Below are positions 587 through 48,631 of a stretch of 61,996 bases of DNA, one piece after another. The notes beneath the pieces are model-generated. The model was given only the letters and a program-made list of their open reading frames with translations. It was not told the origin of the DNA and did no database searches. This DNA is from a virus (Duplodnaviria > Heunggongvirae > Uroviricota > Caudoviricetes). Numbering within the stretch: position 1 is the first letter of the stretch; every line of letters begins with the position of its first letter. The position numbers were made by a program, and so were the translations under genes. The stretch lies in IMG/VR virus record IMGVR_UViG_3300029705_000040, positions 102,209 to 164,204 of that record; one strand, written 5' to 3'.

Positions 587-618
587 TAGTTGATTTCTTA
601 TAATTTTTATTATATAAT
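587..618 (+). promoter_or_regulatory. sigma70-type promoter
   Basis: TAG-TTGATT-17 bp-TATAAT; same architecture at six intergenic sites. Confidence 0.8.
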
Positions 619-648
619 ATTAATATAAGAAATATGTGAGGTAAAGAT

Positions 649-1035
649 ATGTTTTCTATTAACGATAACCACACACTTTTAGAAATGGCCTTAGTTGGAA
701 CAACTAGTGATAATATTGAAATACGAGTGTATGGAAAAGAAGGAAACATTCCACATTTTCACTTTGATCATATACAATCTAAACGAAAGGGTTGTATAAG
801 AATCGATGTTGCAGAATATTTTGATTATGGTGATAAATATAAAGATAGATTAACTAATAAAGAAATAAAAAATTTAATCTTATGGTTAAAATCTGATAAA
901 ACAGTTTTCAAAAAATTTGGTAGCAATATAACTATTTACGATTATATTAAAATATTATGGGATGATAATAATCCGAATTATCCCTTGAAAGAAGATTATA
1001 AAATTCCTGATTATGAGCAGTTGAAAAATTTTTAA
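649..1035 (+). CDS. Hypothetical protein with IPHFH motif (DUF4160-like)
   Basis: ORF track; IEIRVYGKEGNIPHFHF; GAGG RBS. Confidence 0.6.
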   Translation: MFSINDNHTLLEMALVGTTSDNIEIRVYGKEGNIPHFHFDHIQSKRKGCIRIDVAEYFDYGDKYKDRLTNKEIKNLILWLKSDKTVFKKFGSNITIYDYIKILWDDNNPNYPLKEDYKIPDYEQLKNF

Positions 1036-1052
1036 GAGAGGTATTAATTAAA

Positions 1053-1979
1053 ATGGCTAAGTGGGTCGGATATAAAAATGGAAATTATAATGTGCACATT
1101 GACCTTGAAACAGGTACAAAAGTTAGAGAAAATAATTTAGATTTTTTCGAATGTGATACTGTAGAAAGCATGGATGTTAAAATCACTAACTGCTGTGATG
1201 TTGGTTGCGCTATGTGCCATGAGAATAGTACACCTGATGGTAAGCATGCAGATATTTTGAGTCCATCTTTTTTAGATAAATTGCACCCTTATTGTGAGTT
1301 AGCTATCGGTGGTGGTAATCCTCTTGAACACCCTGATCTGCTTAAGTTTTTGGAAAAATGTAAAGAAAGAAAACATATTCCTTCTATGACTGTTAATCAG
1401 GTGCATTTTGAAAAGAATTTTGAGTATGTAAAGAATCTCTGCGAAAATAAGCTTATCTATGGCTTAGGTATTTCTTTGCAAAAAGTAACCGATTCTTTTA
1501 TTGAAAAAGTAAAGCAAATTCCTACTGCTGTTATCCATGTTATAAATGGTATTGTAACAAAAGAGCAGCTCGAGGCTTTAGCTAACAATAACATTAAAGT
1601 TTTAGTTTTAGGTTATAAAGTATTTAGACGTGGTGAGAAACTTTATGAAACTGCAAGCGAAAGCATTGAGAAAAAGAAGTCAATGCTCAAAGAACTTCTT
1701 CCTAACATTATTAAGGAAGGCTGGTTTAAGGTAATTAGCTTCGATAACCTTGCATTAAAGCAACTTGATGTTAGGTCTCATATGACCGAAGAGGAATGGA
1801 ATCGTTTCTATATGGGTGCAGATTCTGAAGAAGAGGATTATAATAATATGAGTGCAACTTTTTTTGTAGATTTAGTTGAAAGAAAATTTGCTATCAATAG
1901 TTGTTCAAATAACAGGTATGATTTGAAAGATACTGCAGAAGAAATGCTTAAATTTTTATATGAAAAATTACATAAATAA
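1053..1979 (+). CDS. Radical SAM protein
   Basis: CDVGCAMC = CxxxCxxC, followed by GGGNPLEHPD. Confidence 0.9.
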   Translation: MAKWVGYKNGNYNVHIDLETGTKVRENNLDFFECDTVESMDVKITNCCDVGCAMCHENSTPDGKHADILSPSFLDKLHPYCELAIGGGNPLEHPDLLKFLEKCKERKHIPSMTVNQVHFEKNFEYVKNLCENKLIYGLGISLQKVTDSFIEKVKQIPTAVIHVINGIVTKEQLEALANNNIKVLVLGYKVFRRGEKLYETASESIEKKKSMLKELLPNIIKEGWFKVISFDNLALKQLDVRSHMTEEEWNRFYMGADSEEEDYNNMSATFFVDLVERKFAINSCSNNRYDLKDTAEEMLKFLYEKLHK

Positions 1980-1982
1980 CAT

Positions 1983-1990
1983 GCTAAATT
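1983..1990 (+). promoter_or_regulatory. GCTAAATT putative late promoter
   Basis: Recurrent intergenic octamer, ~35 bp upstream of the HNH start. Confidence 0.6.
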
Positions 1991-2025
1991 AAGTAGTGCA
2001 ACATTATTTAAGGGAAGAAGTAAAG

Positions 2026-3078
2026 ATGTTAAAGAAACTACTTGATGAAAATTTATTAGAGAGGAATGAATTCTATGATGCATATATTGATTTAATAGCT
2101 CAAAATAAAAATCAGAAGAGAATAAAATATAAAACGGAATAGCATCATATAATTCCTAGATGTTATTTTAAAAGGCATCCATAGAAATTACCTGTGGATA
2201 ATTCAAAAGAGAATTTAATTAATTTATTACATAAAAATCATTTATTAGCACATTATTACCTAGCTAAATGTGCTACTGGTTGGTTAAAATTTTATCTTAT
2301 TTAGGCATTTACTCAACTTCAGCAGCGTCTCAACAAAAATATAAGCTGTGACATATTTAATATAATGGATGATTATTAGGTCTTAATTGAAGAAGGCTTA
2401 AAACTTAAATCAACCTTATATAAAGGCAGAAAATAGTCTGAAGAATCAAAAATTAAAAGAATAGCAACTAGGCTTGAACGTTACCCAGATGGTGTTAGAA
2501 CTAATACAGGCAAAAAGAGATTAATAAAAGATGGTATAAGAATTTTTGTTTTAAGGGACTAGGTAGAAAAATATCTGAAAGATGGTTGGAAATTTGATAG
2601 ACAACCTAGATCAGAAGAAACAAAACAAAAAATACGTGAAGCAAAAAGAGTTAATAAAAAGGTTGCGTGGAATAAGGGTTTGACAAAAGAAATAGATGCC
2701 AGAGTTGCTAAAAACGCAGAATCAACATCGAGATCTATCTAGAGAATAAAGACTGAGAATCCAGATTTATGGAAAAAACATACCGATAATATAGGAAAAC
2801 GTAAAAGAAACTGTGTTGTTGTTACAAATGGAATAGAAGATCGCATGATAAAGTTAGATTTACTAGATGAGTTTTTAGCTAATGGATATGTGAGAGGTAG
2901 AACATTTAAAAAGACTCCTGAGTAGAACAGAAAATCTGCTGAAAAGCGTAAAGGATTAAAGCCTGGAAATTTTGGTAAAATCTGTATATATAATACTACT
3001 ACTGGACATAGAACGTATATATTTGAAGAAGAATTACCTAAATATATTAATTTAGGTTATCATAAAGGAAAAAAGTAA
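2026..3078 (+). mobile_element. Free-standing HNH homing endonuclease with NUMOD3-type repeats (350 aa with TAG read as Gln)
   Basis: ATG 2026 to TAA 3076-3078 with 8 in-frame TAG (2140, 2182, 2302, 2377, 2434, 2560, 2740, 2923); HHIIPR...DNSKENLINLLHKNHLLAH HNH core; SEETKQKIREAK and AWNKGLTKE motifs; three (Y/F)L-x-x-G(W/Y) repeats. Confidence 0.85.
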
Positions 3079-3222: not shown

Positions 3223-3254
3223 TAGTTGATCTTTTTCTCGATTTATTATATAAT
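3223..3254 (+). promoter_or_regulatory. sigma70-type promoter
   Basis: TAG-TTGATC-17 bp-TATAAT. Confidence 0.8.
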
Positions 3255-3290: not shown

Positions 3291-3554
3291 ATGAAAAAGC
3301 TTTTAGTAAGTATTATTGCGCTAACATCTGTGTTCGCATTTTCAGGTTGCAATGAAAGTTTGGGTATGGGTAATTATAGCTTCAAAAGAGCTCATATTTA
3401 TCTCGGCGGAGAAAAAGGTGTTTGCGTAGAAGTAGAAAGCTGGCACGATAATGAGGTTGGTGTTGAGCTTAAATTAAAAGGTGGGCACAGTATCTATTGC
3501 AGCGAAGGTACATATATGCTGGTAGAAGATTATTGTCCTATTTGTGGTAAATAA
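3291..3554 (+). CDS. Small lipoprotein
   Basis: MKK + hydrophobic core + lipobox FSGC; GGAGG RBS. Confidence 0.75.
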   Translation: MKKLLVSIIALTSVFAFSGCNESLGMGNYSFKRAHIYLGGEKGVCVEVESWHDNEVGVELKLKGGHSIYCSEGTYMLVEDYCPICGK

Positions 3555-3612
3555 AAAAAAAATCCATAATTGTATAAAATAATAAAAATAAATCGGAGGT
3601 AATAATATTATT

Positions 3613-4221
3613 ATGGTAAATGAAATGTTTAATGGTATGTTTGGTAAAGTAGGTAGCGGTATGTGCAAGCTCACGACGAGCGGTAGAATTGCGGTAAATT
3701 GCGGCGGTACATACAAATCTTATAATCCGAAGAATGGTAAGCTCACTAACTGCGGTAATTTTGTCCTCCCTGTTGGTGATGATTTCTTCTTTGTAATTCC
3801 TACTAATAAGGTAGAAGTAGGTGATATTATTTTGGTAAATAAGAAACCTCGCTTTGTAAAGGAAGTAGGTAAGAATCAAATCACGGTTATCAATTACGAA
3901 AACTCTACAATTGAAACTATTCTTCCTGAAAGACATATGTTTATGGGTAACACGTACTTCTATGGTAAGATTGTATCTATGTTTGGTGATTCGCTTAAAG
4001 GTAAAGGCGGCGCAAATAACATGATGAAGTACATGATGATGTCTGAAATGATGAAAGGTAATAATGGTATGAGCGGTATGGGTTCAATGCTTCCTTTCAT
4101 GATGATGTCTGGCGGTAATTTCGAAAATATGTTCAGCGGAATTTTTGATGATGCATCTGATGATGAAGTGGAAGATGTTGAAGTTGTAGAAGAAGATGAG
4201 GCAGTGGAGGATGACGAATAA
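3613..4221 (+). CDS. Hypothetical protein with Met/Gly-rich and acidic C-terminus
   Basis: ORF track; stop overlaps next start (TAATG), so translationally coupled to the vWA gene. Confidence 0.8.
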   Translation: MVNEMFNGMFGKVGSGMCKLTTSGRIAVNCGGTYKSYNPKNGKLTNCGNFVLPVGDDFFFVIPTNKVEVGDIILVNKKPRFVKEVGKNQITVINYENSTIETILPERHMFMGNTYFYGKIVSMFGDSLKGKGGANNMMKYMMMSEMMKGNNGMSGMGSMLPFMMMSGGNFENMFSGIFDDASDDEVEDVEVVEEDEAVEDDE

Positions 4222-5108
4222 TGGGCGGCGGAAGTTGGACTACTCAAGCTTATTGTAATTATTCTGCGAGTAGAGGTAGGACAGTTTCTACGTCTTATGT
4301 TAATGGCGTAGCTACAGCTTCGCTTGCTAATTCTGCTTATTCTACTCAAGAATTTTATAAAGCAAGCAGACTTGATGAAGCGCTTAAGCCTCATAAAGTT
4401 ATGAGAGAATGCTGTGATACAGAAGAGCATCCTGAAACTATTCCTGTTATTTTTGGTCTTGATGTAACAGGCTCAATGGGAAGCTCTCTCGAATTGGTTG
4501 CTAAAAAGCTCAATGAAATTATGACTAGAATCTATCAAGAAGTAAAAGATGTTGAGTTTATGATTATGGGTATTGGTGATTTGTATTGCGATGATGCACC
4601 TATCCAAATCTCTCAATTTGAGTCAGATATTCGTATCGCTGAGCAACTTGAAAAGGTTTACTTCGAAAGAGGTGGTGGCGGTAATGGGTATGAGTCTTAT
4701 ACTGCAGCATGGTATATGGGCTCGAGACATTGTAAGCTCGATTGCTGGAAGCGTGGTAAGAAAGGTATTATTATCACTCTCGGCGACGAACCTCTCAATC
4801 CTTATCTTCCTAGAGAAGCTCTTAATAGAGCTACTGGTGATAGTGTAGAAGCAGATGTTGAAACTAAAGATCTTTATCCGGAAGTAACTGAAAAATTCGA
4901 TGTTTATCATATTGTAGTAACAGATGGTGGATCAAGCTATAGCTGGCATAAGCAAGGAATCAAAAATAGCTGGCCAGAATACCTTGATGAAGAACATCTC
5001 AAGTATGCTAAGATTGATAATCTTGCTGAAATGGTTTCTGAGATTATTACTGGACATGCTAGTTCCGGTACGACTATTAATGGAGAACTTAATACAATTT
5101 CTTGGTAA
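4221..5108 (+). CDS. vWA-domain protein
   Basis: MIDAS GLDVTGSMG, GGGGNGYESY, IITLGDE. Confidence 0.85.
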   Translation: MGGGSWTTQAYCNYSASRGRTVSTSYVNGVATASLANSAYSTQEFYKASRLDEALKPHKVMRECCDTEEHPETIPVIFGLDVTGSMGSSLELVAKKLNEIMTRIYQEVKDVEFMIMGIGDLYCDDAPIQISQFESDIRIAEQLEKVYFERGGGGNGYESYTAAWYMGSRHCKLDCWKRGKKGIIITLGDEPLNPYLPREALNRATGDSVEADVETKDLYPEVTEKFDVYHIVVTDGGSSYSWHKQGIKNSWPEYLDEEHLKYAKIDNLAEMVSEIITGHASSGTTINGELNTISW

Positions 5109-5114
5109 AAATAT

Positions 5115-6287
5115 ATGAAATGTAAAATTGTTGTTGGTGCGAATTATGGTGATGAAGGTAAGGGCTTGGTAACACATGTCCTTACCTCACAATATAAAAA
5201 GCAAAATGAAAGGGTATTAAACATCTTATACAACGGCGGTTGTCAACGTGGTCATACCGTCGAATACAAAAATGGTGCTAAACATGTTTTTAAGCATTTT
5301 GGTAGTGGTACATTAGATGGCGCAGACACATATTTCAATAAAGATTTTATATTAAATCCGACACAATTCATGACTGAGTACTCACAATTAGCTTCTTTAG
5401 ATAAAGAATATTTTAACTCAGAAATGACTAAATGTTTCTGTCATAGAGATTGTAGAGTTTCTACCCCTTATGATGCACTTTTAAATCAGATGCTCGAACT
5501 TAATAGAGATGAAAGCAGACATGGTTCGTGCGGTTGGGGTATTTTTGAAACTAGAAAAAGATATGAAAGCTCTGAGTATGACTGGTCGCTTTTAAAAATG
5601 CGTTGTTCTACTAACCAACAACTTTTTATGTACCTAGAAAAAATTGCTAAAGAATATCTTCCAGAAAAGATTGAAGAGTATGGTATAAAAGATTCTGTAA
5701 TTGAAAAATACAGAAACATTTGTATAAGCTCTGATTTAATTAACGCTTACATTTCTGATTTTAGAGCTATGTGTAAGTTAGTAGATATAATTTATTTTGG
5801 CGATTTAATTAAAAAATATGACGCTGTTATTTATGAGGGTGGACAGGGTTTAGCTTTAAGCGAAACAAATATTAGCGATTTTCCATATTTAACACCTAGT
5901 AAAACTGGCTCAGAAGTACCTATCGAAGAGATTAAACCTTACACAAATGATATCGAAGTTATTTATGTAAGCAGAACATATTTCACTAGACATGGTGCTG
6001 GTCCCTTAGCTTTTGAATGTAATAAAGATAAGCTCAATCCAGAAATTGAAGATTTAACAAATTTTCCTAATGATTTTCAAAAATCACTGCGATTCGCTCC
6101 ATTTGTAGATAAGGATCTCATAGACAGAATCTTGAAAGATGGTTGTACATATAAAAGAAGCTTATATTTAACTCATAATAATTATATTAGACAGTCGGAT
6201 ACTATATTAGAAATCCTATCTGGTTATTTTAGTAAAATTATGTTGAGTTTCGATAAGTACGGGGTAATAAATGAGTGTTTTTCTTAA
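5115..6287 (+). CDS. purA: Adenylosuccinate synthetase-like protein (divergent PurA family)
   Basis: VVGANYGDEGKG, GGCQRGHTV, HFGSGT, YEGGQG, TYFTRHGAGP. Confidence 0.8.
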   Translation: MKCKIVVGANYGDEGKGLVTHVLTSQYKKQNERVLNILYNGGCQRGHTVEYKNGAKHVFKHFGSGTLDGADTYFNKDFILNPTQFMTEYSQLASLDKEYFNSEMTKCFCHRDCRVSTPYDALLNQMLELNRDESRHGSCGWGIFETRKRYESSEYDWSLLKMRCSTNQQLFMYLEKIAKEYLPEKIEEYGIKDSVIEKYRNICISSDLINAYISDFRAMCKLVDIIYFGDLIKKYDAVIYEGGQGLALSETNISDFPYLTPSKTGSEVPIEEIKPYTNDIEVIYVSRTYFTRHGAGPLAFECNKDKLNPEIEDLTNFPNDFQKSLRFAPFVDKDLIDRILKDGCTYKRSLYLTHNNYIRQSDTILEILSGYFSKIMLSFDKYGVINECFS

Positions 6288-6597
6288 ATCAGATTTAAAT
6301 ATAACTTATGTTTCACAAGAATATTGTGATAATTTTGAAAAAGTTACTAAAGGTTTAGCTAATGCTATTGATTGCCCAGAATTAAAACCCAGTAAAAAGT
6401 TTCTAGAGAAATGCTTTAATTTATTGTTAGAGATGGATTCAGCTATTTTTGAAGCAGAATCTGTCATAAACAAACAGAGAGAAAAATTATCTGATTTCGA
6501 TTGCTTAGATGAAGATGAAGAAGAGAATATCTGGGATGAAGATAATGAAGATTTTGAAGAATCAGACTTCGATATAGATGATGAGGATGAAGAATGA
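6271..6597 (+). CDS. Hypothetical protein, acidic tail
   Basis: ORF track; overlaps both neighbours in operon fashion. Confidence 0.7.
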   Translation: MSVFLKSDLNITYVSQEYCDNFEKVTKGLANAIDCPELKPSKKFLEKCFNLLLEMDSAIFEAESVINKQREKLSDFDCLDEDEEENIWDEDNEDFEESDFDIDDEDEE

Positions 6598-7040
6598 AAC
6601 GTAAACCTATCTCAAAAGAAGTGAGAGAGTTAGTTTATCACAAATTTGGAAAACACTGCGCTTACTGTGGGTGTTATCTAGAAAATATAAAAGACATGCA
6701 AGTAGATCATTTTGCACCTGTATATTTGTTTGGAGATAATATTGATATAAAAAATTTATATCCAGCCTGCCGTAGCTGTAACAAATATAAAGATACTTTC
6801 ACAATAGAAAAATTTAGAGATCAATTAAGTAAAATTCCAGAAAGATTATCAAGAGATGTAACTACATACAACATCGCAAAAAGATATGGAATGATTCAAG
6901 AAACAAAAAAGCCTATCAAATTTTTCTATGAAGAATACACTAGCGTATTAGACTTTGATGACCTCGCAAATAAAATATTAAATAAAAATATGGCTGATAT
7001 AAAAACAGGTAATGAGGAAGAAGTCAGTGAAAAATTATAA
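6594..7040 (+). CDS. HNH endonuclease
   Basis: CAYCG...MQVDHFAP...NLYPACRSCNKYK. Confidence 0.9.
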   Translation: MKRKPISKEVRELVYHKFGKHCAYCGCYLENIKDMQVDHFAPVYLFGDNIDIKNLYPACRSCNKYKDTFTIEKFRDQLSKIPERLSRDVTTYNIAKRYGMIQETKKPIKFFYEEYTSVLDFDDLANKILNKNMADIKTGNEEEVSEKL

Positions 7041-7332
7041 TTTAACAGACATAAAAACAATTTGTGAAAGAGCAGTAAGCGAAGGAAAATGTGGAAGTAA
7101 TAGCTGTCCGATTCAAGAATTTTGTTATAAACATTTTAAAGATATTCCTAAAGATTGGGATAATATAGAAAAAATATCAGAGCCTGGAATATATAGTTGG
7201 TTTGTAGAAGAAGATGATGGATATAATTATGGCGAAGCAGGTCATGCAGAAAATTTAGAAGAAGCATTCTATAAAGCAACAGAGTATAGTCCAAAACAAA
7301 TAAAAACTATTACAATAAACAAACAAAATTAA
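7012..7332 (+). CDS. Hypothetical protein (Cys-containing N-terminus)
   Basis: ORF track. Confidence 0.65.
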   Translation: MRKKSVKNYNLTDIKTICERAVSEGKCGSNSCPIQEFCYKHFKDIPKDWDNIEKISEPGIYSWFVEEDDGYNYGEAGHAENLEEAFYKATEYSPKQIKTITINKQN

Positions 7333-7440: not shown

Positions 7441-7448
7441 GCTAAATT
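7441..7448 (+). promoter_or_regulatory. GCTAAATT putative late promoter
   Basis: Recurrent intergenic octamer. Confidence 0.55.
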
Positions 7449-7486: not shown

Positions 7487-7516
7487 GGTCTAGTCAAGTA
7501 TCGGCTAGACCTTTTC
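7487..7516 (+). terminator. Hairpin with U-tract
   Basis: GGTCTAGTC/GGCTAGACC stem followed by TTTT. Confidence 0.5.
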
Positions 7517-7559
7517 TGTATAAAAATGAGAACATAGAATAATTTAGTGAGAAAATATA

Positions 7560-7567
7560 GCTAAATT
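7560..7567 (+). promoter_or_regulatory. GCTAAATT putative late promoter
   Basis: Recurrent octamer upstream of the fibre gene at 7674. Confidence 0.6.
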
Positions 7568-7673
7568 AAACGAACACAGACGTTTTCAATTATATATAAA
7601 ATTAATGGGTGCGCAACATTAATATAAAAATATAAGAAGAAAACAAATAAAAAATTTCAAGGAGTTACACAAA

Positions 7674-8136
7674 ATGGCAGGTAACAACGCAATTCAGTTC
7701 CTTAGAGGAACAACATCTGCAATAAGCAGCAGCACAGCTACACTCCTCGAAGGCCAACCTCTATATGACTACGAAACAGGTTTGTTTTACGTAGGTAAGA
7801 AGGGGGGGGGCAGTTAATTAGACAGCTCCCATAAAAGCCGGGAGTGTGAAAAACAGTCTTACAATTAAGACAAATGGAACAACAGCAGCTACTTTCGATG
7901 GTAGCTCAGCAGCAAGTGTGAATATAACACCATCATCGATTGGTGCTGCTTCCTCATCACATTCTCACTCAAATTACGCTACTATTTCTTATGTTGACGA
8001 GAAACTCAGTAATGCTGAAATGACTTGTGAATTTGATTTTTCTGGTAATACAATCACAATTACACCACCAGAACGAGCTACAGCTACAACTAGTTGGTCT
8101 ATAAACAGTGATGGCAGATTGGTTATTGAGGTGTAA
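7674..8136 (+). CDS. Short tail-fibre-like protein, currently out of frame at a G9 tract
   Basis: ATG 7674 with GGAG RBS gives MAGNNAIQFLRGT...GQPLYDYETGLFYVG (fibre anchor motif), stopping at TAA 7815; the +1 frame after G 7802-7810 continues AVN(TAG)TAPIKAGSVKNSLTIKTNG...TFDGSSAASVNIT...IGAA...SHSH (fibre repeat). Confidence 0.7.
7802..7810 (+). repeat. G9 homopolymer tract
   Basis: Nine consecutive G in an AT-rich genome; G8 or G11 would restore the frame. Confidence 0.9.
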
Positions 8137-8138
8137 TT

Positions 8139-9311
8139 ATGGCGAATGTTATAATAGATGAAAAATATAGTATTTGCGGCACAGATGATGGGCATAGAGT
8201 TTTTGATTTAGTAGTAAATGATCAACTAGTTAGAAGATTTCCTAGATTAGAGGGAGATTTTTTACATATGCCAGATGCGGATTATGTAATGGCTCAAGGA
8301 ACATTTTTAGGAGAGGGTATGCCTCCAGCAGTCTTGGTATCCGAATATGAGTATGAGCAACCTAGTATTTATGATCCATTTTACTATATGATACATAGTA
8401 TAAGATCTGATGCAGTAGATATTCCTGTAAATCTTTAGAGACTTATAACTGATGCTGAAGCATTAAATACTCTAGCATCAAACTTAGAAAATAATAATCA
8501 TAGATTAATATTTGTTTATATTAACACTACTGATGAGCAATCTTTTATTGATTTGATTAAAAAATTTCATGATAAGTTTTCTGAGGAGTATTTTTTTATA
8601 TTTATTAATCTAGAATTAATTTTATCTGGTTATCCTAACATACTTTCAAATTATTATAATATGTATGTTATTAGAAGTGGTTTATATGGTGTAATAGATG
8701 CTGCTAAAAGTTTAATTAACAATATTAGTACTAATTCTGAAATGTCGAATATTTGTGTTATCGAATAGGGTAGTCGTTTAACAAATATTGATGGTACAGA
8801 AAAATTAAATTATTTAACTATATACTCAGAACTTTTAGATAGTCTCAATGTTGTATAGATATACAACTTTGCTGGAAGTGATTAGACATCATTATTAAAT
8901 ACTCTAGAGGTGTGTATTAATGAGGCATCTAGTTATGGTACTGATACTATATTAATTTTACCAGATATTTATATATCAAATACTACTTTAAAACCATTAA
9001 AACCAGATCTCGAAGAGGCTGGTATAAATTTACTAATAATAAAGCCAAGTCAAGAAAGCTTAAATGCTGAAACTGATTAGTATTTTATTTGTAAGTATAA
9101 TACTGAGAATGTAGGTTCTTTTTTGTACAATTTATTTTCTGCTTTTGAATCAGGTTCTATAGATGATGTTGATTGTTCTTTAAGGGATTTTACTAGAAAT
9201 TTTTATTTTTATTAGCCAAGCGGTACTGATTATTATGAGGCTCTTGATTCAAATTTTCAACCTATGAGTTGGGCTGAGTGGCTTATAACGCCAAGTCCTC
9301 AGATATTATAA
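8139..9311 (+). CDS. Hypothetical protein (390 aa with TAG read as Gln)
   Basis: Joins ORF-track pieces 8139 and 8553 and continues through 6 in-frame TAG to TAA 9309-9311, just before a terminator. Confidence 0.75.
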
Positions 9312-9369: not shown

Positions 9370-9401
9370 TAGTTGATCTTTTCTTTTAGGTATATTATAA
9401 T
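9370..9401 (+). promoter_or_regulatory. sigma70-type promoter
   Basis: TAG-TTGATC-17 bp-TATAAT. Confidence 0.8.
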
Positions 9402-9431: not shown

Positions 9432-9797
9432 ATGTCAATAAAAATTTATCAAACGCAATTTACTAAAAATATGTCTGATATTGATCTCATTTATAAGCAG
9501 CACATTTTAGCTGAGAATTTAGATCAGGCTAAAGAGTTATTTTGCAAGAAACTGTATCTTGAATCTTTTCCTGATAATATTTCTATTAAAGAAATTCCTT
9601 TCAATATCTCTTATATGCGGACTTATTTTGGGGATGGTTGGAAGGATGAAATTAATTCTGAAACAGATACTCATACAGTAAGAAGAAATGTTATCCATGA
9701 GTGCGCTAATTGCGGACGTAACTTTGTAACTATTAAGCAATCTGATTTTTGTCCTGATTGCGGTAGTTATCTTGCTTATGAGGTTATGGATCTGTAA
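9432..9797 (+). CDS. Hypothetical protein with C-terminal zinc ribbon
   Basis: CANCG...FCPDCG. Confidence 0.75.
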   Translation: MSIKIYQTQFTKNMSDIDLIYKQHILAENLDQAKELFCKKLYLESFPDNISIKEIPFNISYMRTYFGDGWKDEINSETDTHTVRRNVIHECANCGRNFVTIKQSDFCPDCGSYLAYEVMDL

Positions 9798-9819: not shown

Positions 9820-9871
9820 AAAGATCAACTAGTTAATTTTAGTTGATCTTTTTTCATTTTTATTATATAAT
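9820..9871 (+). promoter_or_regulatory. Terminator hairpin overlapping a sigma70-type promoter
   Basis: AAAGATCAACTA/TAGTTGATCTTT inverted repeat whose right arm is the -35 (TTGATC 9843), then 17 bp and TATAAT 9866. Confidence 0.75.
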
Positions 9872-9904: not shown

Positions 9905-10261
9905 ATGGGACTAAAACTTTTTAAATGCTTTATTGAGGAAAATGGTTGGGGAACATATTATGAGCGCAATCCAGAAATTATTATCGCTCAAAATGCTGAA
10001 GAAGCCTTAACCTTATATCGATCTAATAAGAATTTACGTAAAAATGCTAAGGGCTTGAAAATAAAAGAAGTACCATACAAAGTAGGTAAACGTATAAATA
10101 AACAAAAATTAGAAAGAGTATTAGTGAAAGAAATTTATCCCATTAAGCAAGCTTATAAAACAACTAAAGAAGTTACACATTTTTATTGTAACTGTTGTAT
10201 GAAAGAAGTGAACAGATATGATAGCTTCTGTAAATGTTGTGGTACATATTTTCCAAATTAA
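9905..10261 (+). CDS. Hypothetical protein with C-terminal zinc ribbon
   Basis: YCNCCMKEV...FCKCCG. Confidence 0.75.
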   Translation: MGLKLFKCFIEENGWGTYYERNPEIIIAQNAEEALTLYRSNKNLRKNAKGLKIKEVPYKVGKRINKQKLERVLVKEIYPIKQAYKTTKEVTHFYCNCCMKEVNRYDSFCKCCGTYFPN

Positions 10262-10264
10262 GTC

Positions 10265-10723
10265 ATGAGAAAATTAGAAAACAAATTTATTCACTTTGGT
10301 GATACAAAATTTGATATTAATAAGTGGGAAGATGTAATAGATACGCACTGGATTAAACCTATAGGTGGATTATGGGCTTCTAGAAAGCATGTTCCTTATG
10401 GATGGTTTCAATGGAATGCTTCTAACCACTACATGGATTGCTCTTCTTATAATTGTTTTGAATTTAGTCTTAAACCAGAAGCTAGAATACTTACTATAAA
10501 ATCTATTGAGGATTTGGAAGCTTTACCTAAACATGAGCCTGAAAAATGCTTTCAATTGTTAAGAGTTTTTGAGACTGTTTATTTAGACTTTAACAAATTG
10601 AAAGAAGAATATGATGCTATCGAAGTATTTATTTCTTCCGACAGTCGATTATATCGAGCTTTATATGGTTGGGATTGTGATTCTATTTTAATTATGAATA
10701 AGGATGTGATTGAATATGTTTAA
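10265..10723 (+). CDS. Hypothetical phage protein (KPxGGLWAS motif)
   Basis: ORF track; operon context. Confidence 0.75.
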   Translation: MRKLENKFIHFGDTKFDINKWEDVIDTHWIKPIGGLWASRKHVPYGWFQWNASNHYMDCSSYNCFEFSLKPEARILTIKSIEDLEALPKHEPEKCFQLLRVFETVYLDFNKLKEEYDAIEVFISSDSRLYRALYGWDCDSILIMNKDVIEYV

Positions 10724-11105
10724 TCCAGGAAAATGGGAACAGAAGTGTGCAGAAAGGTGTCCTATTTCTGTAGATTCTGATTTAGAAAAAACAGCTCAGT
10801 TAGAAGTTGATAGAATAAAATTTTTACAACAGTTTGAGAATAAAAGTACTTTTATGATTTCAGATGTTATTTATGCTGACGAGCTTTCTGATATTGGTAA
10901 AATAAATTTTAATGCTAATAGATCTCAACCAGCATTGTTTTTCGAAGTACATACTTTTGATAATAAAATTAGATATAGGTCTGCTAACTCAGAAGAAGAA
11001 TTATTTAAAAAGTATTCTAACATTAAAGCTCTCAGACAAATATCGAAAGAAAATTATGATACATTAAGAGCAAAAGCTGTGCGTACAAATGCTGATGATT
11101 TATAA
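10710..11105 (+). CDS. Hypothetical protein
   Basis: ORF track; overlapping operon context. Confidence 0.7.
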   Translation: MNMFNPGKWEQKCAERCPISVDSDLEKTAQLEVDRIKFLQQFENKSTFMISDVIYADELSDIGKINFNANRSQPALFFEVHTFDNKIRYRSANSEEELFKKYSNIKALRQISKENYDTLRAKAVRTNADDL

Positions 11106-11120
11106 TGAGAGGTGTAATAG

Positions 11121-11630
11121 ATGACTGAAACAATAGATATTGTTAAAAATTATACTGAAGCTAAAGATGCTTATATAGATAATGTAAAAAGCTATATTGA
11201 AACTATCTTAGCTACAAATTTTTGTAAGCACGCTCAAGTATCAGTTAAGCCTAATTATATTACTGCAGAATTAGTAAACGCATATATTTATATTGATTTT
11301 GTGGATGATAATAATGAACACATTTTTGGTAGCGATATTAATATTCGGTACACAGAAAAACGACCTGTTGATTTTGAAAAATTAGAAATGACTGTTGAGA
11401 TGGATTACTATGCTCACACTGTTTTTGATTATGATGCTCTTGAAATAGAAAGGTGTAGAGCTATTAGCGTATTAGCTACTTGCTTAAGCGTTATAAAGAC
11501 TATTCTAGATAAAGAGCCTAAAGAAGATTTCATTAAAGCTAGTATTGCTTTAAATGAGTTTTATAAACAAAACAAACAAAAAGAAATAGATATGCTGAGG
11601 TCAAGTAATGGTAAAAGAAATACTGACTAA
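11121..11630 (+). CDS. Hypothetical protein
   Basis: ORF track; GAGG RBS. Confidence 0.75.
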   Translation: MTETIDIVKNYTEAKDAYIDNVKSYIETILATNFCKHAQVSVKPNYITAELVNAYIYIDFVDDNNEHIFGSDINIRYTEKRPVDFEKLEMTVEMDYYAHTVFDYDALEIERCRAISVLATCLSVIKTILDKEPKEDFIKASIALNEFYKQNKQKEIDMLRSSNGKRNTD

Positions 11631-12078
11631 TTTAAGAGATGATAAATCTGTTTACATACAATCTGCTAGCGGTTTATCTATTATCCAAATCGCTTATTTT
11701 AAGCCTGATAAATTTGATGATGCTATTATCAATCTAAGATATTTTGGAAGTGTTAGTAAAGATAATTTCAAATATTCTGGTTTTAGATTTGACGTGAAAG
11801 GTTTTTATGAGTTTTATTCTCATTTGCAAGATTTGCTTAATCCAGATAGTACGCAATTGATGTATACTAAGATTGATTCTAATGATGAGCGTATAAATCT
11901 CACTAGATCAGATAATGGGATTTCTGTATATAAATATGTAAGTAAAACATTGCAGGAACGTAATGATCCTCTATGGGAATTTTATATTGATAGAGATGCA
12001 GCAAATGAGTTTATCGAACATCTTCGCAATATGTTAGCGCTTATTGCTACACAGGTTGATATGAGTGAGGAAGTATAA
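11608..12078 (+). CDS. Hypothetical protein
   Basis: ORF track; GAGG RBS. Confidence 0.75.
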   Translation: MVKEILTNLRDDKSVYIQSASGLSIIQIAYFKPDKFDDAIINLRYFGSVSKDNFKYSGFRFDVKGFYEFYSHLQDLLNPDSTQLMYTKIDSNDERINLTRSDNGISVYKYVSKTLQERNDPLWEFYIDRDAANEFIEHLRNMLALIATQVDMSEEV

Positions 12079-12080
12079 TT

Positions 12081-12527
12081 ATGAGACATGTTTTAAGAAG
12101 TATAAAACCATATTGGGTGTATCTTATTTTGAAGGGTAAAAAGACTGTTGAGGTTGGTAAAAATATACCTAAAGCAGAAGATTGGTCTAAATATATTTAT
12201 ATTTATTGCAGTAAAGATTTGAGATCTTTCAATCGCATTCCTAAAGAAGATCGAGAATGGTTTAAGAAATATTTAGGAACAGTTGTTGGTAGATTCTTTT
12301 GCCCTGAAATTGGAAGAGCTTACTGGACAGATATCGATGGCGAAGATGGATATCTGCTACCATGCTTAGGTGATGAGTGCCTCACTTATGATGAGCTACT
12401 CGACTATGGCCAATATGCAGATTTGTTTTTATATAAGATATCGAATTTGGAAATGTTCGAATATTCTAAAAATTTGAAATTTTTTGGATTAGAAAAAGCA
12501 CCACAAAGCTGGTGCTACATAAAATAA
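12081..12527 (+). CDS. ASCH/PUA-like domain protein
   Basis: VLRSIKPYWVYLILKGKKTVEVGK resembles the ASCH SIKP...GxKTxExR signature (R replaced by G); C-terminal APQSWCY. Confidence 0.7.
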   Translation: MRHVLRSIKPYWVYLILKGKKTVEVGKNIPKAEDWSKYIYIYCSKDLRSFNRIPKEDREWFKKYLGTVVGRFFCPEIGRAYWTDIDGEDGYLLPCLGDECLTYDELLDYGQYADLFLYKISNLEMFEYSKNLKFFGLEKAPQSWCYIK

Positions 12528-12544
12528 TATTGAGGAGAAAATTT

Positions 12545-12973
12545 ATGTTAAAAGATCTTATTTTAGAAAAATGGAAGGAAGCATTTAAAGCAAAAGATGA
12601 AAATTTGAAATCAGCCTACTCGATGGTTAAAGCAAAAATTCTAGTAGAAGAAAAATCAGGTAAATATACGCTTCCTCTCACTGATGATGTTGTAGTTGCT
12701 ATCATCACAAAAGAAGTAAAAGAATTAAAAGAAACTCAAACATTCTACAAACCAGAAGATCAAATGTACGCTGATATCAATGTAAAGATTGCGGCTTTAT
12801 CAGAATATCTTCCTAAACAAATGACTGCAGAAGAAGTTAAAGAAGTCATTGCTAGACTTCTTACTCAAGAAACAAATAAAGGTAAACTTATTGGTTTAAC
12901 TGTTAAAGAAGTTGGTAACAGATATGATAAGTCTAAAATTGCTCAGCTAGTTAATGAGGTAGTAAATGGATAA
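12545..12973 (+). CDS. GatB/YqeY-domain protein
   Basis: EAFKAKD...MVKAKIL...LTDDVVVAIITKEVK...EYLPKQMTAEEVKEVI; start moved to the ATG after GAGGAG. Confidence 0.8.
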   Translation: MLKDLILEKWKEAFKAKDENLKSAYSMVKAKILVEEKSGKYTLPLTDDVVVAIITKEVKELKETQTFYKPEDQMYADINVKIAALSEYLPKQMTAEEVKEVIARLLTQETNKGKLIGLTVKEVGNRYDKSKIAQLVNEVVNG

Positions 12974-13486: not shown

Positions 13487-13488
13487 AA

Positions 13489-13677: not shown

Positions 13678-13702
13678 TTTAAACTTGATTTTATCATATA
13701 AT
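13671..13702 (+). promoter_or_regulatory. sigma70-type promoter
   Basis: TAG-TTGATT-17 bp-TATAAT. Confidence 0.75.
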
Positions 13703-14279: not shown

Positions 14280-14447
14280 GACTTGATTTGTAAATTAGTA
14301 TGTAACAGTTAATTCTCACTCAGAGAGGGTAATATTCGCTGAAGGAAATTATACTAAGAATGTTAAAGTAATATATTTTATTACCTTGAAAATTTAATTC
14401 AGGGAGAATAAAGAGAATCATATAAAATAAAAATAACAGGTGAAAAT

Positions 14448-36984: not shown

Positions 36985-37021
36985 TAACCTCTAGATAATA
37001 AGCTAAATTATTTAGAGGTTA
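36985..37021 (+). promoter_or_regulatory. Hairpin with GCTAAATT late motif in its loop and right arm
   Basis: TAACCTCTAGATAAT-AAGCTAA-ATTATTTAGAGGTTA; motif at 37002-37009. Confidence 0.65.
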
Positions 37022-42751: not shown

Positions 42752-42759
42752 GCTAAATT
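42752..42759 (+). promoter_or_regulatory. GCTAAATT putative late promoter
   Basis: Recurrent intergenic octamer. Confidence 0.6.
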
Positions 42760-42838: not shown

Positions 42839-45082
42839 ATGAAAGGTATAATAAATGAAGCTCTTAGCCCTCAAAAGCTTATTACAGGTGACAGATACTT
42901 ACAGTTTTTTGATGGTAAAGCTGCTAACATATATGCAGATAAAGAAGATAAAATTAAATATGCTTGCAAATTATTAAACATAAAAAACATATCAGATATT
43001 CTAGTGTATTCTGTTGCTGATCCTGCTATGTATTCTCAGATAAGATTATATTTGAGTAAGGTGCAATCATCAGCAAACTTAGCAACTGTTGTGAAAAAGA
43101 TTTTTAAGCAAGCAGTATCTATGAAATTTAAGGAAGTGGATTTAAGCAAACAAACAAAGAATGCTAAAGGAAAAGCTATGCTATGTCCAGCTTTTAATTG
43201 TGTTGTTTTTCAAGATATGTTTGCTTTCAAAGATAGAGGATCTTTTACAAAATTTAGTGAATTTTTAGAAAGTAAATCTGTAAATACATCTACAATAGAA
43301 ACTGATACAGTTTCTGATACAGCAGATACATCTGTAACTAGAGAAGAACGGGATGATTACGGAAATTTGAAAAAAGTAATCCACATTGAAAAAACTGATG
43401 CTGGAAAATATTACGCTAAAGTTGCATAGATACCTGAAATTTCAAAACAAAGATTCGAATCACCAAAAGATGCTGAAAGTTATGCTAGAAAAGTTCTTGA
43501 TAAGAATGGTTATAAATCTAAAGAATTTGCAGTAGATGGATCTTTTACAGCTGAAAAGAAAACAAATAGAAGTGTATCAGTAGATGGATCTGGAAATGTA
43601 ACAGCATTTAATTTTAGTGTTACAAATGCTGATGGTGAAACTGAAACAATATCAGAAGATCCTAAAAATCTTGCTTTCATTATTGGTGGTAAGGTTTATG
43701 GATATAACAAATATAAAGGTATGAACGCTAAACAGAAGAAGCAAGCTATCATAATTAAGAGATCTGGATTAGTTGGCTAGACTATTATAGAAAGTTTGCA
43801 AGATTTTGCTGATTTGGAAACCTATTTACCTGACTATATAGATATTATAGAAAATGGTGAGAAGTATATAATAAATAATAAAGAAACAAACGAAAAAGTT
43901 TCTGTTAACATATCTGGTAACGATAATGAAGATTGTCGCGAAATTATTTATTCTCTATATAAAATAACTGGAGGAAAATTAGATTTGAAAAACTTTATTG
44001 ACGAATTAAATGAGTGTGGAAATGAAAAAATTCTTGAAGCTAGTGATTCTAGTATCTCTGAGGTTAGCTTTATGACTGTACAGGATTTATTATCTGACAT
44101 GATTGGAAATGTTCCAGAAAAGCAACTAGATGATGAGATGAAAAAATTTAAGAAATTTGCTAGAATACTGCATGTTAAAGATTTTGGTGATGTTTTAGTT
44201 ATGGTAGATGAAGGTGAGAGAGATCCTTCTGAATTATTCCCTGATGGTAGATATCACGTAGTAAATGAAGAAACTGGTGAGCATGAAATCTATTTTGATG
44301 AGCAAGGTATCGTCGCAGAATATACAAATGGTTTAATTTACATTTATTTTGCTAGCGAAGATATTATGAATAAATTTATTAAAGCATCTGATGAATTTTT
44401 AAGATCATTTGAAATCGAAGAAAATCCTTTTGTAGAAGAAATTTTAGAATTCGGTGATGTTATGTCTATAGAAGAATGCTTAAACATTTTAGATAAGAAT
44501 TCTAACAATAAATTTGATCTTCTTAATTGCTATTTAAGTGAGCATTTCACTACTGATGAAAAATGCAAAATAGCTGAAATGATTAAAGAAGGTTACTCAA
44601 AGGATTCTTTACAAAAATATCTCAAAGAAAAAATTGTAGATAAAGATTTTGTTTTAACCGAAGATCAGGATGAAGAAGAAATTTCAGAAGATGATATGAC
44701 TATCGAACAACTTCTTTTTGCTATGGTAGAAGATCAAGGTCAAGAATACGGCTCAGTATCTATATATGATAAAATGTCTCTAGATAAAGCTGTAGATTGG
44801 TTAACAACTCGCGGCTATGATTATGATATACAGCAAATAGAAGAAGATGGTTGGGAGTTATTCTGGGAAAAGAAACCTGATGCTTCTGAATATGGTTCTT
44901 CAAGTGATTCTATAAATAAAACAGTTGCTCAAAATATATTAAAATCTTTAAGAGATGTTCAAGAAATGCTTCATGATATTATGACTGAATCATCAGCAAC
45001 AAAATCAGCTGCTGATTATGATCAAGATATTCAAGAAAAGCTTCAAGCAGCTTTAGATGAAGCTAAGAAATTTGATTATTAA
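42839..45082 (+). CDS. Large multidomain protein with MKGIINEA start (747 aa, 2 TAG)
   Basis: TAG at 43427 and ~43778 join ORF-track 42839 and 43796 in frame. Confidence 0.8.
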
Positions 45083-45983: not shown

Positions 45984-45991
45984 GCTAAATT
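45984..45991 (+). promoter_or_regulatory. GCTAAATT putative late promoter
   Basis: GCTAAATTATTTA. Confidence 0.7.
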
Positions 45992-46041: not shown

Positions 46042-47379
46042 ATGAAATTAAAGAAATATAAATCAATGCATGAAGCTGTTGAGGTTAGTGATATTGATTA
46101 TAGCACTATGGATCATGTCATGGCTGGTGCTTATAGAGAATCTGAAGAACTCAAGAAAAGAGCAGAAAAAGCTATGGAAGATAGAAAGCTTGAGATGCCT
46201 AACGAAGATATAGAAGCTCACAAAGATATTAAATCAGATGACATGAAAAAAATGCATTTATGCGAATCTTTCTTTGAAGAATTTATTTCCGATGAAGACC
46301 TTACAGAAGCTACAATAACTGAAGCTGCTTATACAGATGAGCATATACAATACATAGAAGATTCTTATAAAGCTGTTTGTAAATATTATACATCTGTAGA
46401 AGCTGTAGTAGACGCTTTTAGATCAGAAGCTGAGCTTATGGATGCTTCAGAAGTTATTGATGATATTGCTATAACTCTTCGCGAAAAAATAGAATCAGTT
46501 TCAGAAAGTAAAAAAGAAGATTCTGAAGGTGAGCTTTTAACTGAGTATAAAAGACAGGAAGGATCTAAATTAGTTTATAAACAAAAGAGAGATTCTTTAG
46601 CAGAAATTATTCAAGTAGAATTAACAGAAGGCGAATGGGGTTATGTAGAAAACCCCGATGGTTCAACATCACCTACCCGATTACCTTCTGCTAACTATTT
46701 AGATGACAAAATTGGCGTAGTCTTTGGAAGAGATGATTCTTGCTCAATTAGAATTTGGGCTAAAGATGAAGAAGCATTACAACCAGCTGTAGACATTGCT
46801 AAAAAATATGGAAAAGATTATAAAGTTGGTTCTGATAAATATGTTCAATCAGAAGATAAATTCTATTGCGATATCTTTTTGACAGAAGAAGATTGGGAAG
46901 GTCATTATTTTGATCCAAATGTTCCAGTAGCTAAGTCTGAAAAGCCTTCAAAGAAAAAAGTAGAAGAGCTTGAAGAAGATATTAAGGAAGATAATACAGA
47001 TATCGAGACTAAAGAGGAATGTATCCATCCCAGCGAAGAAATTGAGGAATCTATCGAAGATGTCGAAAAGGAAATTCTTACAGAAGCTAGAATTTCAACA
47101 GAAGGCCTAAGAAATTTCAGACCCTGGGATGGTGCAGTAAATACTTATCAAAGAATAGTAGAAGCTAAGAAATTAGATACTTTAGAATTTATGCTTGAAG
47201 ATATGTATCCAAACGGGGTTGGTGCTAATGAGTTAAATGACATGCTTCAATTCGAATCTGATTGGATTTTAGAATCTTTAGGTTTAATTGAAAAAACTGA
47301 TGATTCTGATGATGATATTTATGAAACAGTAATTGGCCCAGATGGTAATCCAATGAAAAAGCTTAAAGAAACAATTTAA
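46042..47379 (+). CDS. Acidic protein with many L-x-E motifs (candidate head-core protein)
   Basis: MHEAV, LCESF, LTEATITEA, LTEYK, LEEDI, LTEAR. Confidence 0.8.
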   Translation: MKLKKYKSMHEAVEVSDIDYSTMDHVMAGAYRESEELKKRAEKAMEDRKLEMPNEDIEAHKDIKSDDMKKMHLCESFFEEFISDEDLTEATITEAAYTDEHIQYIEDSYKAVCKYYTSVEAVVDAFRSEAELMDASEVIDDIAITLREKIESVSESKKEDSEGELLTEYKRQEGSKLVYKQKRDSLAEIIQVELTEGEWGYVENPDGSTSPTRLPSANYLDDKIGVVFGRDDSCSIRIWAKDEEALQPAVDIAKKYGKDYKVGSDKYVQSEDKFYCDIFLTEEDWEGHYFDPNVPVAKSEKPSKKKVEELEEDIKEDNTDIETKEECIHPSEEIEESIEDVEKEILTEARISTEGLRNFRPWDGAVNTYQRIVEAKKLDTLEFMLEDMYPNGVGANELNDMLQFESDWILESLGLIEKTDDSDDDIYETVIGPDGNPMKKLKETI

Positions 47380-47390
47380 GCTGGAGGTAC

Positions 47391-48119
47391 ATGATGGGAT
47401 ATTTAGATAGAAAAGCTAGAATAAAATTCTATGAAGAATTAAAAAAAGCTGGTAAAACAAAAATACAGCTTCAAGAAAATTTATTGAAAGAAGAAGCTGA
47501 AACTGTTCCAGTAGTTGTAGTAACTTCAGAAGAAGTTGCGCCTTGCTCTATTCCAGTAATGGATGAGTGCCCAGTTGTGGTGGAACCAAATAAAGAAAAC
47601 GATCCAGGTGAACCAAAATCTGTTCCAACAGAAGATATAGGAATAGCTGACATGCTCATATAGGCTATTACTGATGAGTATGCTACAATTGCTCAATATA
47701 ATTCTTTAGTAGCTATTTTAAATGACACAGGATATTCAGAGTTAGCAGCTGTTGTAAGTCATATAAACGAAGAAGAGCAAATCCATGTTGGTATGTTACA
47801 ACATGCTATGGAAGAAGTTTCAAAGCAAGCTAAAAAAGTTGAAGATGGTAAGCAAGAAGCTGAGCAAATAATTTCAGGCGAACCTATTGTAGAAGAACCT
47901 GTTGTAATAGAAGTTGCGCCAAAGGTTGCTGAGCAACCTTTAGAAGAAGCAGTAAAAGAAGATAAAATAGAAGAAGCTCAAGCTTTAGTTGATGCAGCTA
48001 TTAAATGCTTTGGAAGAATTGGCGGTGGCTTATATGATGACTTAGATGAAATGGGTCTATATGTAGCAGAAGAAGATGGAAATTATATTGTAAAAAAGAA
48101 AGTTCCAGACGCTGAATAA
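47391..48119 (+). CDS. Acidic protein containing a ferritin-like helix pair (1 TAG)
   Basis: IADMLI(TAG)AITDEYATIAQY...INEEEQIHVGMLQ; joins ORF-track 47391 and 47793. Confidence 0.7.
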
Positions 48120-48137
48120 GTCTTCGGGAGGTTTTAT

Positions 48138-48539
48138 ATGAAAATTTTATTAGTGGAAGATTTTTCAGAAGAATTTGATTTTTCAGAAGAATTAGAATAC
48201 TACGCAGATGATGTTGTAGATGACGAAGATTCTGGAAAAGTTTCTGGATCAGTTTATGTACAGATAGATTCAGACGAAGTTTTAACATTCTTTTGGGAAC
48301 ATGCTGACATAGATATAGATAAACATCCAGAATTAGAAGATGATTTAAACTGGAAAAAATATGTAAAAGAAAATTACGAAGAGCTTTGGGAAAATCTAGG
48401 TGAAGCTTTATAGGATTATTATAAAGATAGAGCTAGAGATAAAGTCTATGATAATTGGGATAATTATGCTATAGAAGACGAATCACCCTATGATGACCGA
48501 GCAGAGCTTCTGAGAGATTATTACAGAAACGTATTATAA
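48138..48539 (+). CDS. Acidic protein with MKILLVED start (1 TAG)
   Basis: Readthrough of TAG 48411 ends at TAA 48537, immediately before a terminator. Confidence 0.8.
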
Positions 48540-48543
48540 AAAT

Positions 48544-48581
48544 AATAGGTCGCCATGAGGTAATTCTTAAGGCGACCTATT
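48544..48581 (+). terminator. Intrinsic terminator
   Basis: AATAGGTCGCC/GGCGACCTATT. Confidence 0.7.
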
Positions 48582-48623
48582 CGAATAAATTAAAAATAAT
48601 CTAGAATGATACATAAAATAATT

Positions 48624-48631
48624 GCTAAATT
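48624..48631 (+). promoter_or_regulatory. GCTAAATT putative late promoter
   Basis: GCTAAATTATTTG upstream of the tail-fibre cluster. Confidence 0.7.

Follow-up and report, generated by a model that had tools for sequence, protein, structure and literature searches.

For gut phages with a reassigned stop codon, Borges et al. (bioRxiv, 10.1101/2021.08.26.457843) have proposed a model in which early genes are kept in the standard code and late genes are recoded, with the change of code acting as a translational lock. The same study describes a strongly recoded homing endonuclease within the early region and makes no mention of promoters. Recoded gut phages have also been reported by Yutin et al. 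(2021; PMC7886860). Here we analyze a window of 61,996 nucleotides, which is the rightmost 62 kb of the 164,204-base virus contig IMGVR_UViG_3300029705_000040 (contig positions 102,209 to 164,204), and describe two short DNA signals that sort its genes by their content of in-frame TAG codons: a host-type promoter pattern, which we call P1, and the motif GCTAAATTA, which we call M2. The phage is a clear new example of the published early/late code switch. That model rests on the location of recoded codons and its connection to transcription has not been described; in this genome the code partition is readable from the two DNA signals. Positions refer to the window unless the contig is named.

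Among the described systems for late transcription, phage T4 uses TATAAATA at the -10 position and no -35 element, and relies on the sigma factor gp55, the co-activator gp33 and the clamp gp45 (PDB 7D7D); the open reading frames within T4 introns have a late-type signal of their own. Phage SPO1 starts with early promoters of the host sigma-A and continues with the phage sigma factor gp28 and with gp33/34, and its middle and late promoters are bipartite, with a -35 and a -10 element. Some other recoded phages, mostly Lak-like megaphages, appear to have a gp55-type sigma factor and late-type motifs that read (G/T)GTAAATA or AATAAATA.

The Genetic Code of the Phage

The contig has a G+C content of 32% and an estimated completeness of 76%, nearly all plausible genes are located on the plus strand, and the DNA runs that contain the phage sequence come from animal faeces and bovine gut; among RNA runs, none was listed for the window or for one late gene. 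Reading TAG as a sense codon opens frames that are otherwise closed and increases the coding density from 0.805 in the standard code to 0.867, as is characteristic of recoding of the code 15 type; every reading frame then closes with TAA or TGA, and 53 of the 251 genes in our own gene calls for the contig contain an in-frame TAG. The contig encodes 35 tRNAs, two of which, located in tandem at contig 27231-27403 and outside the window, have a CUA anticodon. TAG is read as an amino acid in this phage, and this amino acid is most likely glutamine: the acceptor stem of the second suppressor tRNA is common with the phage's own tRNA-Gln, and in a sigma-like gene of a relative (family A3, see below) one TAG column corresponds to Q in 10 of 12 orthologues, the other columns being variable. 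An alignment to a standard-code relative gave columns too variable for a decision on the meaning of TAG. A single-protein search among viral contigs found no close relatives, an annotated phage collection yielded distant matches to the giant gene at the end of the window and nothing else, and Rfam at gathering scores returned tRNAs only.

Two Signals Upstream of the Genes

A first-pass annotation of the window had listed six exact copies of TAGTTGAT(C/T)-N17-TATAAT. Our search with TAGTTGATY-N17-TATAAT, summarised as TAGTTGAY-N17-TATAAT, returned exactly these six, all on the plus strand, compared with none in 100 shuffles, and the whole contig carries 24 P1 sites, again all on the plus strand and all before contig position 121,849. 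By its sequence P1 is a near-consensus promoter of the host sigma-A, with a TTGACA-like -35 box and TATAAT at -10 separated by 17 nucleotides; in relatives the -35 box reads TTGAC(A/T). The sites share flanks beyond the hexamers, and in most of them TTGAT(C/T)-17-TATAAT is followed by a common leader of 19-37 nucleotides with a strong ribosome-binding site, so that they look like repeated early-promoter cassettes. Seven sites, those of the tRNA region and the one at 19641, stand 63-990 nucleotides upstream of the start codon. The functions encoded behind P1 include NrdD, Thg1, FolD, a kinase, a phosphoesterase and an RNA ligase. A scan with a generic sigma-70 consensus was uninformative (100 sites vs 108 in shuffles).

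Within the window, the P1 site TAGTTGATT-N17-TATAAT at 587-618 heads two TAG-free genes (649-1979), the site at 3223-3254 heads seven (3291-7332), that at 9370-9401 a single one (9432-9797), that at 9840-9871 ten (9905-13677) and that at 13671-13702 again seven (13740-17530). The sixth, at 19641-19672, is the last P1 site of the contig and is followed 57 nucleotides downstream by an M2 site. The TAGTTGATC box of the site at 9840 doubles as an arm of a 13-bp inverted repeat (GATCAACTA ... TAGTTGATC, 9820-9851), which could be an operator or the relic of a reversed copy.

The second signal had been proposed on the basis of ten intergenic copies of GCTAAATT, all of which were found again. Together with two intragenic matches at 54173 (plus strand) and 32367 (minus strand) the window holds 12 copies, and this raw count is not above chance (8.0 expected). 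The placement is strongly biased: intergenic sequence makes up 6.3% of the window and holds 10 of the 11 plus-strand copies (binomial P 1e-11), in the whole genome 19 of 20 plus-strand copies lie between genes or at the edge of one (2e-15), and M2 is the most intergenic-biased 8-mer aside from P1 and tRNA words. Variants with one mismatch showed no intergenic enrichment (11 of 165). An alignment of 60 intergenic sites from four genomes gave GCTAAATTA (A in 55 of 60) followed by a weak wwT(G/A), and no conserved -35 or other upstream element. M2 precedes protein and tRNA genes alike, and the distance to the next start codon has a median of 46 nucleotides (10th-90th percentile about 23-238). A literature search with the motif string returned primers only.

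The ten intergenic sites of the window are all on the plus strand. In the early region, 1983-1990 lies 36 nucleotides before the start of a homing-endonuclease gene, 7441-7448 is followed after 40 nucleotides by a terminator-like hairpin, 7560-7567 has a conserved leader, and 17562-17569 heads two genes without TAG (17612-19612), an exception to the rule that M2 means TAG. The site at 19729-19736 stands at the head of the late block, within which 30916-30923 is located 37 nucleotides ahead of gene 30953-31693, 37002-37009 stands 38 nucleotides ahead of the gene starting at 37040, in the loop between the two arms of an 8-bp inverted repeat, and 42752-42759, 45984-45991 and 48624-48631 precede the genes 42839-45082, 46042-47379 and 48670-49095, respectively. 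If the site at 7441 is a promoter, it would produce an RNA of about 60 nucleotides.

TAG Codons Are Partitioned Between the Two Signals

Behind the first five P1 sites we found no TAG at all, as the first-pass annotation had stated: the 27 genes comprise 4,034 codons, for which about 12 TAGs would be expected at the rate of the late block (~2.9 per 1000 codons), and all of them end with TAA or TGA. As TAG is absent both as codon and as stop, these genes read the same in either code. It had further been claimed that every TAG-containing gene lies downstream of GCTAAATT. This holds in the window, where M2 is the nearest upstream signal for 30 of 30 such genes, and breaks down genome-wide, where 9 or 10 TAG-bearing genes, depending on the definition of P1, have P1 as nearest upstream signal and one further gene at the contig start has no upstream signal. 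A Fisher test of TAG content against the upstream motif, which the annotation had suggested, bears out the association, with 0.43 TAG per 1000 codons for P1 vs 4.56 for M2 (3e-18), a gene-level P value that overstates the evidence, since genes within an operon or block are not independent. With the first gene after each site as the fairer unit, TAG occurs in 1 of 25 genes for P1 and in 11 of 17 for M2 (P 3e-5). The link between motif class and TAG content is strong in this genome; what the analysis shows directly are the motifs, their placement and conservation, and the sorting of TAG.

The M2 islands of the early region comprise one or two TAG-rich genes each, which encode homing endonucleases of the GIY-YIG and HNH types as well as fibre-like paralogues. 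The homing-endonuclease gene at 2026-3078 (phrog_655, plus strand) contains 8 in-frame TAGs and is an island among TAG-free genes. Behind the M2 site at 7560 two plus-strand genes without a family match (7765-9311) contain 2 and 6 in-frame TAGs, and an N-terminus in this pair is paralogous to that of another M2-driven gene. M2 and leader have a paralogue at contig 90140, and M2, leader and the first 30 codons (MAGNN.IQ.LRG...) are duplicated between window 7545-7770 and contig 90125-90350; the putative promoter seems to travel together with the gene start. At contig 3716-7014 the gene of the anaerobic ribonucleotide reductase appears to be split, the downstream gene being a match to the C-terminus of NrdD, and between the two halves lies the gene of a GIY-YIG/NUMOD1 endonuclease, preceded by a separate M2, an arrangement that recalls the T4 nrdD gene with I-TevII. 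No group I intron was found with Rfam (E up to 1) near the split nrdD or in the island at 7.3-9.4 kb.

The late block is headed by a gene for an AAA+ ATPase of the MoxR/AAA_5 type (19820-21064, plus strand), which indeed has both signals upstream, P1 at 19641 and M2 at 19729, and in which codon 82, before the part that encodes the P-loop domain (residues 124-261), is TAG. Together with a DUF2201 metallopeptidase-like partner (19820-22642) it forms a pair that is present in all relatives examined. The 40 genes that follow at 21092-61995 are all on the plus strand; 26 of them contain TAG, none has a P1 site, and the last runs off the contig. Besides the DUF2201/VWA partner, the block includes an array of paralogues, tail-fibre-like genes and the giant open-ended gene. 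Four large late genes (50797-56903) have the top codon-usage scores and zero TAG, which may mean that the recoded codon is avoided in late genes with high expression. In a P1 unit outside the window, gene 43 (contig 23222-23665) has TAG as its penultimate codon, with a single codon between it and the final TGA; the TAG may be a true stop with a backup stop, harmless in both codes.

M2 Is Present in Standard-Code Relatives

Relatives were gathered by a scan for the P1 pattern and by a search with a late protein, which gave phages of 139-214 kb with proteins 30-55% identical to those of this phage. G003 (202 kb, complete) uses the standard code, has no suppressor tRNA and ends 12 of 311 genes with TAG; it contains P1 and ten M2 copies on the plus strand, nine of them intergenic. 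G008 (145 kb, complete) also uses the standard code and has no P1, with 7 of 11 plus-strand M2 copies intergenic. G006 (214 kb, complete) is TAG-recoded with two CUA tRNAs, 17 P1 sites of the TTGAC type and 25 of 34 plus-strand M2 copies intergenic, and it repeats the partition with 0.38 (P1) vs 5.6 (M2) TAG per 1000 codons. In G001 (151 kb, about 71% complete), which is heavily TAG-recoded, the first genes after the 28 scored P1 sites contain 1.05 TAG per 1000 codons vs 11.9 genome-wide, and its P1-dense 30 kb hold 8 TAGs; M2 is not enriched, and this genome replicates the TAG-poor half of the partition only.

Taken together, four genomes, with the standard-code G003 and G008 among them, show the intergenic and strand-specific placement of M2. 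The proteins of the clade include a T4-type capsid protein (Pfam Gp23) and a prohead protease (Peptidase_S77), and in G003, G006 and G008 M2 is located directly upstream of the operon that encodes them. M2 is most likely a late promoter element that is older than the recoding: its conserved place before the prohead protease/capsid operon is the main support for the first part of this reading, and its presence in standard-code relatives speaks for the second. Such an age suggests an order of events in which the late promoters came first and TAG settled behind them later.

Two Promoter Classes as the Best Explanation

The best explanation, which we regard as fairly probable, is that P1 and M2 are an early and a late promoter class and that TAG is confined to genes that are translated once the suppressors are present. 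P1 would drive the early genes, such as those of nucleotide metabolism and RNA repair, in which TAG is neither codon nor stop. M2, often followed by wwTG and without a -35 element, would be a compact promoter element of the T4 late type, probably read by the host RNA polymerase together with a phage-made specificity factor, and would head the late operons as well as scattered single late-type genes in the early region, such as those of homing endonucleases and fibre paralogues. M2-driven genes would be the only ones translated after the two CUA suppressor tRNAs have appeared, hence the near-absence of TAG from all others. Early read-through transcripts would reach the homing endonucleases and the AAA+ gene, where TAG would act as a translational gate. 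We infer the promoter function of M2, its factor, the timing and an adaptive role as a lock from the arrangement of motifs and codons. The proposal of the first-pass annotation that TAG is a second, translational lock on late genes corresponds to the published model, and the data do not separate such a lock from simple tolerance.

Several observations count against this explanation. The gene calls are our own and simple. Among the P1 units there are genes with one or two TAGs each, mostly in the first 25 codons, some of which are probably start-codon miscalls; conversely, 16 genes of the window with M2 as nearest signal have no TAG, including those at 17612-19612 and the large genes at 50797-56903. 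Several gaps carry no motif at all and a third motif exists, so a scheme of two classes is incomplete. G001 and G009 show no enrichment of M2, although both partition TAG, and M2 therefore is not the only possible late signal. Finally, a gp55-like sigma factor, for which the first-pass annotation had proposed a search, was not found by sequence in the contig or in the complete relatives: the gp55 families phrog_234 and phrog_12791 had no match in the 76% complete contig or in the complete G003, our own gp55 hidden Markov model gave a best E of 0.046 over all open reading frames of four genomes, and comparison by hhalign of gp55 with 93 of the gene families gave a probability of at most 4%. Sigma-70 regions 2 and 4 (PF04542, PF04545, PF08281) were detected in the contig and its relatives in one unrelated gene of G007 only, and a search for a T7-type polymerase, for beta/beta' domains and for DxDGD motifs returned nothing, the T7 model being silent in control genomes too, which makes this blank a weak one. 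The annotation's reading of M2 as a late promoter fits the conserved place before the capsid operon and the lack of a -35 element, and is not backed by a gp55 recognizable from sequence.

A first alternative is passive tolerance, in which M2 is a late promoter and TAG simply drifts into genes that are translated only in the presence of the suppressor, so that it has no regulatory role and the sorting is a by-product. This we consider rather unlikely. About one third of the late genes are free of TAG, including the largest and best codon-adapted ones, which also speaks against a lock; TAG is likewise absent from the match to the capsid gene in recoded G006, TAG positions are spread roughly evenly within genes, and the scarcity of TAG stops already in standard-code relatives such as G003 fits a gradual neutral path. 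Drift would not readily account for the share of TAG among glutamine codons, which is 44% in the genes of homing endonucleases and other islands vs 10% in the late block and 2.7% elsewhere, nor for the number of late genes with at least one TAG (27 of 41), which exceeds the 21.9 obtained under random placement over glutamine codons (P 0.02). It is also at odds with relatives of both TAG and TGA lineages, in which the reassigned codon crowds into a single gene of an early operon that is clean otherwise (see below).

A second alternative accepts GCTAAATTA as a strand-specific signal and assigns it a function other than that of a promoter, for example in RNA processing, as an antitermination or loading site or as an operator. 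We regard this as improbable. M2 has no -35 element and no identified factor, the site at 7441 precedes a terminator-like hairpin and that at 37002 lies in a hairpin loop, and its invariance, with no one-base variants tolerated, is that of a protein-binding or cleavage site. Against such a function, M2 heads operons after intergenic gaps at a variable distance from the start codon (the range given above) and also precedes tRNA genes, the late-region operons of the window have no other candidate promoter, and the TAAATT core retains A and T where they matter most in -10 elements. Least of all do we expect that a host alternative sigma factor reads M2 and late expression follows the state of the host: the contig has no phage sigma factor recognizable by sequence and the suggested host is a Firmicute, judged from Shine-Dalgarno use and promoter type, but we know of no host alternative-sigma consensus that M2 matches, and M2 is conserved across phages with different early promoters, including G008 without P1, and co-occurs with a conserved phage sigma-like gene.

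A Candidate for the Factor That Reads M2

As neither a polymerase nor a sigma factor is found by sequence, the two promoter classes would probably both be transcribed by the host polymerase, the second with an unrecognised factor. The gene of G007 mentioned above encodes an extracytoplasmic function (ECF)-like sigma factor of 227 residues (L167:3095-3778) with Sigma70_r2 and a helix-turn-helix; as it has no counterpart in the other genomes it was rejected as shared factor. Two conserved core proteins of unknown function were likewise rejected as transcription factors, one being RecU-like and the other possibly gp32-like.

The remaining candidate, A3, is a family of about 280 residues that follows gp46/47-like genes in a P1 unit and was picked, as a guess, from gene order. 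Compared with sigma-70 clusters by Atlas features it scored 0.93, and a structural Atlas search again led, weakly, to viral sigma clusters. The AlphaFold model (predicted local distance difference test, pLDDT, 81) has two helical domains. Residues 11-110 align with many sigma region-2 domains, including ShbA (Z 7.1) and chain 7d7d_F of the gp45-dependent transcription activation complex (Z 6.9, root-mean-square deviation 3.4, 91 residues), which we take to be T4 gp55, and sigma factors make up about 18 of the top 50 structural rows, Z values this low being common for helical proteins. By sequence, none of 33 members matched Pfam Sigma70_r2 or r4 at E up to 1, searches in Pfam, PHROGs, PDB sequences and Foldseek gave no significant match for A3, and profile-profile comparison with gp55 gave a probability of 0.25%. 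We lean towards A3 being sigma-like. The family is found in 8 of 11 relatives, some of which show no M2 enrichment; it is not on this contig, which is without the whole conserved replication/head block. Of the copies of GCTAAATTA in 43 further loci with A3, 36 have the orientation of the genes and 3 the opposite one.

In the recoded relatives A3 is loaded with the reassigned codon. It contains 6 TAGs in G006, where it is the sole TAG-bearing gene of an otherwise TAG-free P1 operon, 3 in G001 and 11 in G009. Across ten distinct TGA-recoded loci A3 has 23 TGA vs 5 TGG and its neighbours 26 vs 161 (Fisher 6e-13), and in two TAG loci A3 has 14 TAG vs 23 CAA/CAG and its neighbours 18 vs 247 (2e-6); the loci are related and represent few independent events, with two different codons involved. 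Several TGA-recoded relatives (L204-L217) begin A3 with ML-TGA-KKP, where standard-code relatives have MLWKKP, so the reassigned codon is the third codon of the sigma-like gene.

Suppressor tRNAs and a Third Motif

The suppressor tRNAs stand behind neither P1 nor M2. A third intergenic motif, which the first-pass annotation missed, precedes them: in this genome (contig 27188-27231) a CTGTATATAAT box lies upstream, with a strong, terminator-like 11-bp hairpin and T-run (contig 27197-27224, -12.8 kcal/mol) between box and tRNA that ends 3 nucleotides before the first tRNA, and in G006 both suppressor tRNAs follow TTTGTATAT after 25-30 nucleotides. The motif, yTGTATAw, is intergenically enriched in three genomes and is often found after terminators. 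In the window, a terminator-like hairpin (7487-7511) with a T-run leads into CTGTATA (7516-7522; together 7487-7522, plus strand), and CTGTATAAATAAT at 56913-56919 (plus strand) is located just ahead of the giant gene at 57001, in a gap that has no M2. Early read-through would stop at the hairpin before the tRNAs, from which a transcript starting inside the hairpin arm would escape.

These elements allow a tentative extension, which we hold to be possible rather than likely, namely that the code switch lies upstream of the switch in late transcription. A3 and the gp46/47-like genes would share an early host-type promoter, with A3 carrying the reassigned codon, TAG or TGA according to lineage; its load of these codons would delay the sigma-like factor until suppressor tRNA has accumulated, and the GCTAAATTA late promoters would fire only afterwards. 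The suppressor tRNAs would be expressed from their own yTGTATAw signal, in this genome behind a terminator, so that a three-step timer might result, with its pace set by a tRNA rather than by a protein. If A3 indeed reads M2, the suppressor tRNA would be a timer of late gene expression that gates late transcription itself. For annotation, the two motifs P1 and M2 offer a simple way to divide such genomes into code blocks.

Comparison With Known Systems

With SPO1 the phage has in common very strong consensus -35/-10 early promoters, repeated as cassettes that include a short leader and a strong ribosome-binding site, and a later class with another signal. In contrast to SPO1, M2 has no upstream box and no protein of the sigma-70 family is detectable by Pfam. 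With T4 it shares the following: M2 is a short AT-rich element with a TAAAT core and no -35, it heads genes of prohead protease, capsid and fibres, and the clade encodes a Gp23 capsid protein, a Peptidase_S77, a clamp-loader subunit (in G003) and possibly a gp32-like protein. The free-standing and gene-splitting homing endonucleases found here have a late-type signal of their own, like the open reading frames within T4 introns. Differences to T4 are the motif itself, GCTAAATTA instead of TATAAATA, and the factor, as PHROG profiles, our own hidden Markov model and profile-profile comparison revealed no gp55 and the only candidate is the two-domain A3 of 280 residues, whose N-terminal domain resembles sigma region 2, including that of T4 gp55, at the level of the fold only.

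Several features are common with the recoded gut phages of Borges et al.: CUA suppressor tRNAs are present, early genes fit both codes, TAG is concentrated in structural and late genes and is depleted as a stop, a homing endonuclease of the early region is strongly recoded, and clades mix the codes 11, 15 and 4. New here are the late-type motif, its probable origin before the recoding and the lead to A3. Beyond the published description, the code partition coincides with two promoter classes defined by sequence, standard-code relatives carry the late-type motif as well, a separate motif precedes the suppressor tRNAs, and in relatives the sigma-like gene is a hot spot of the reassigned codon.

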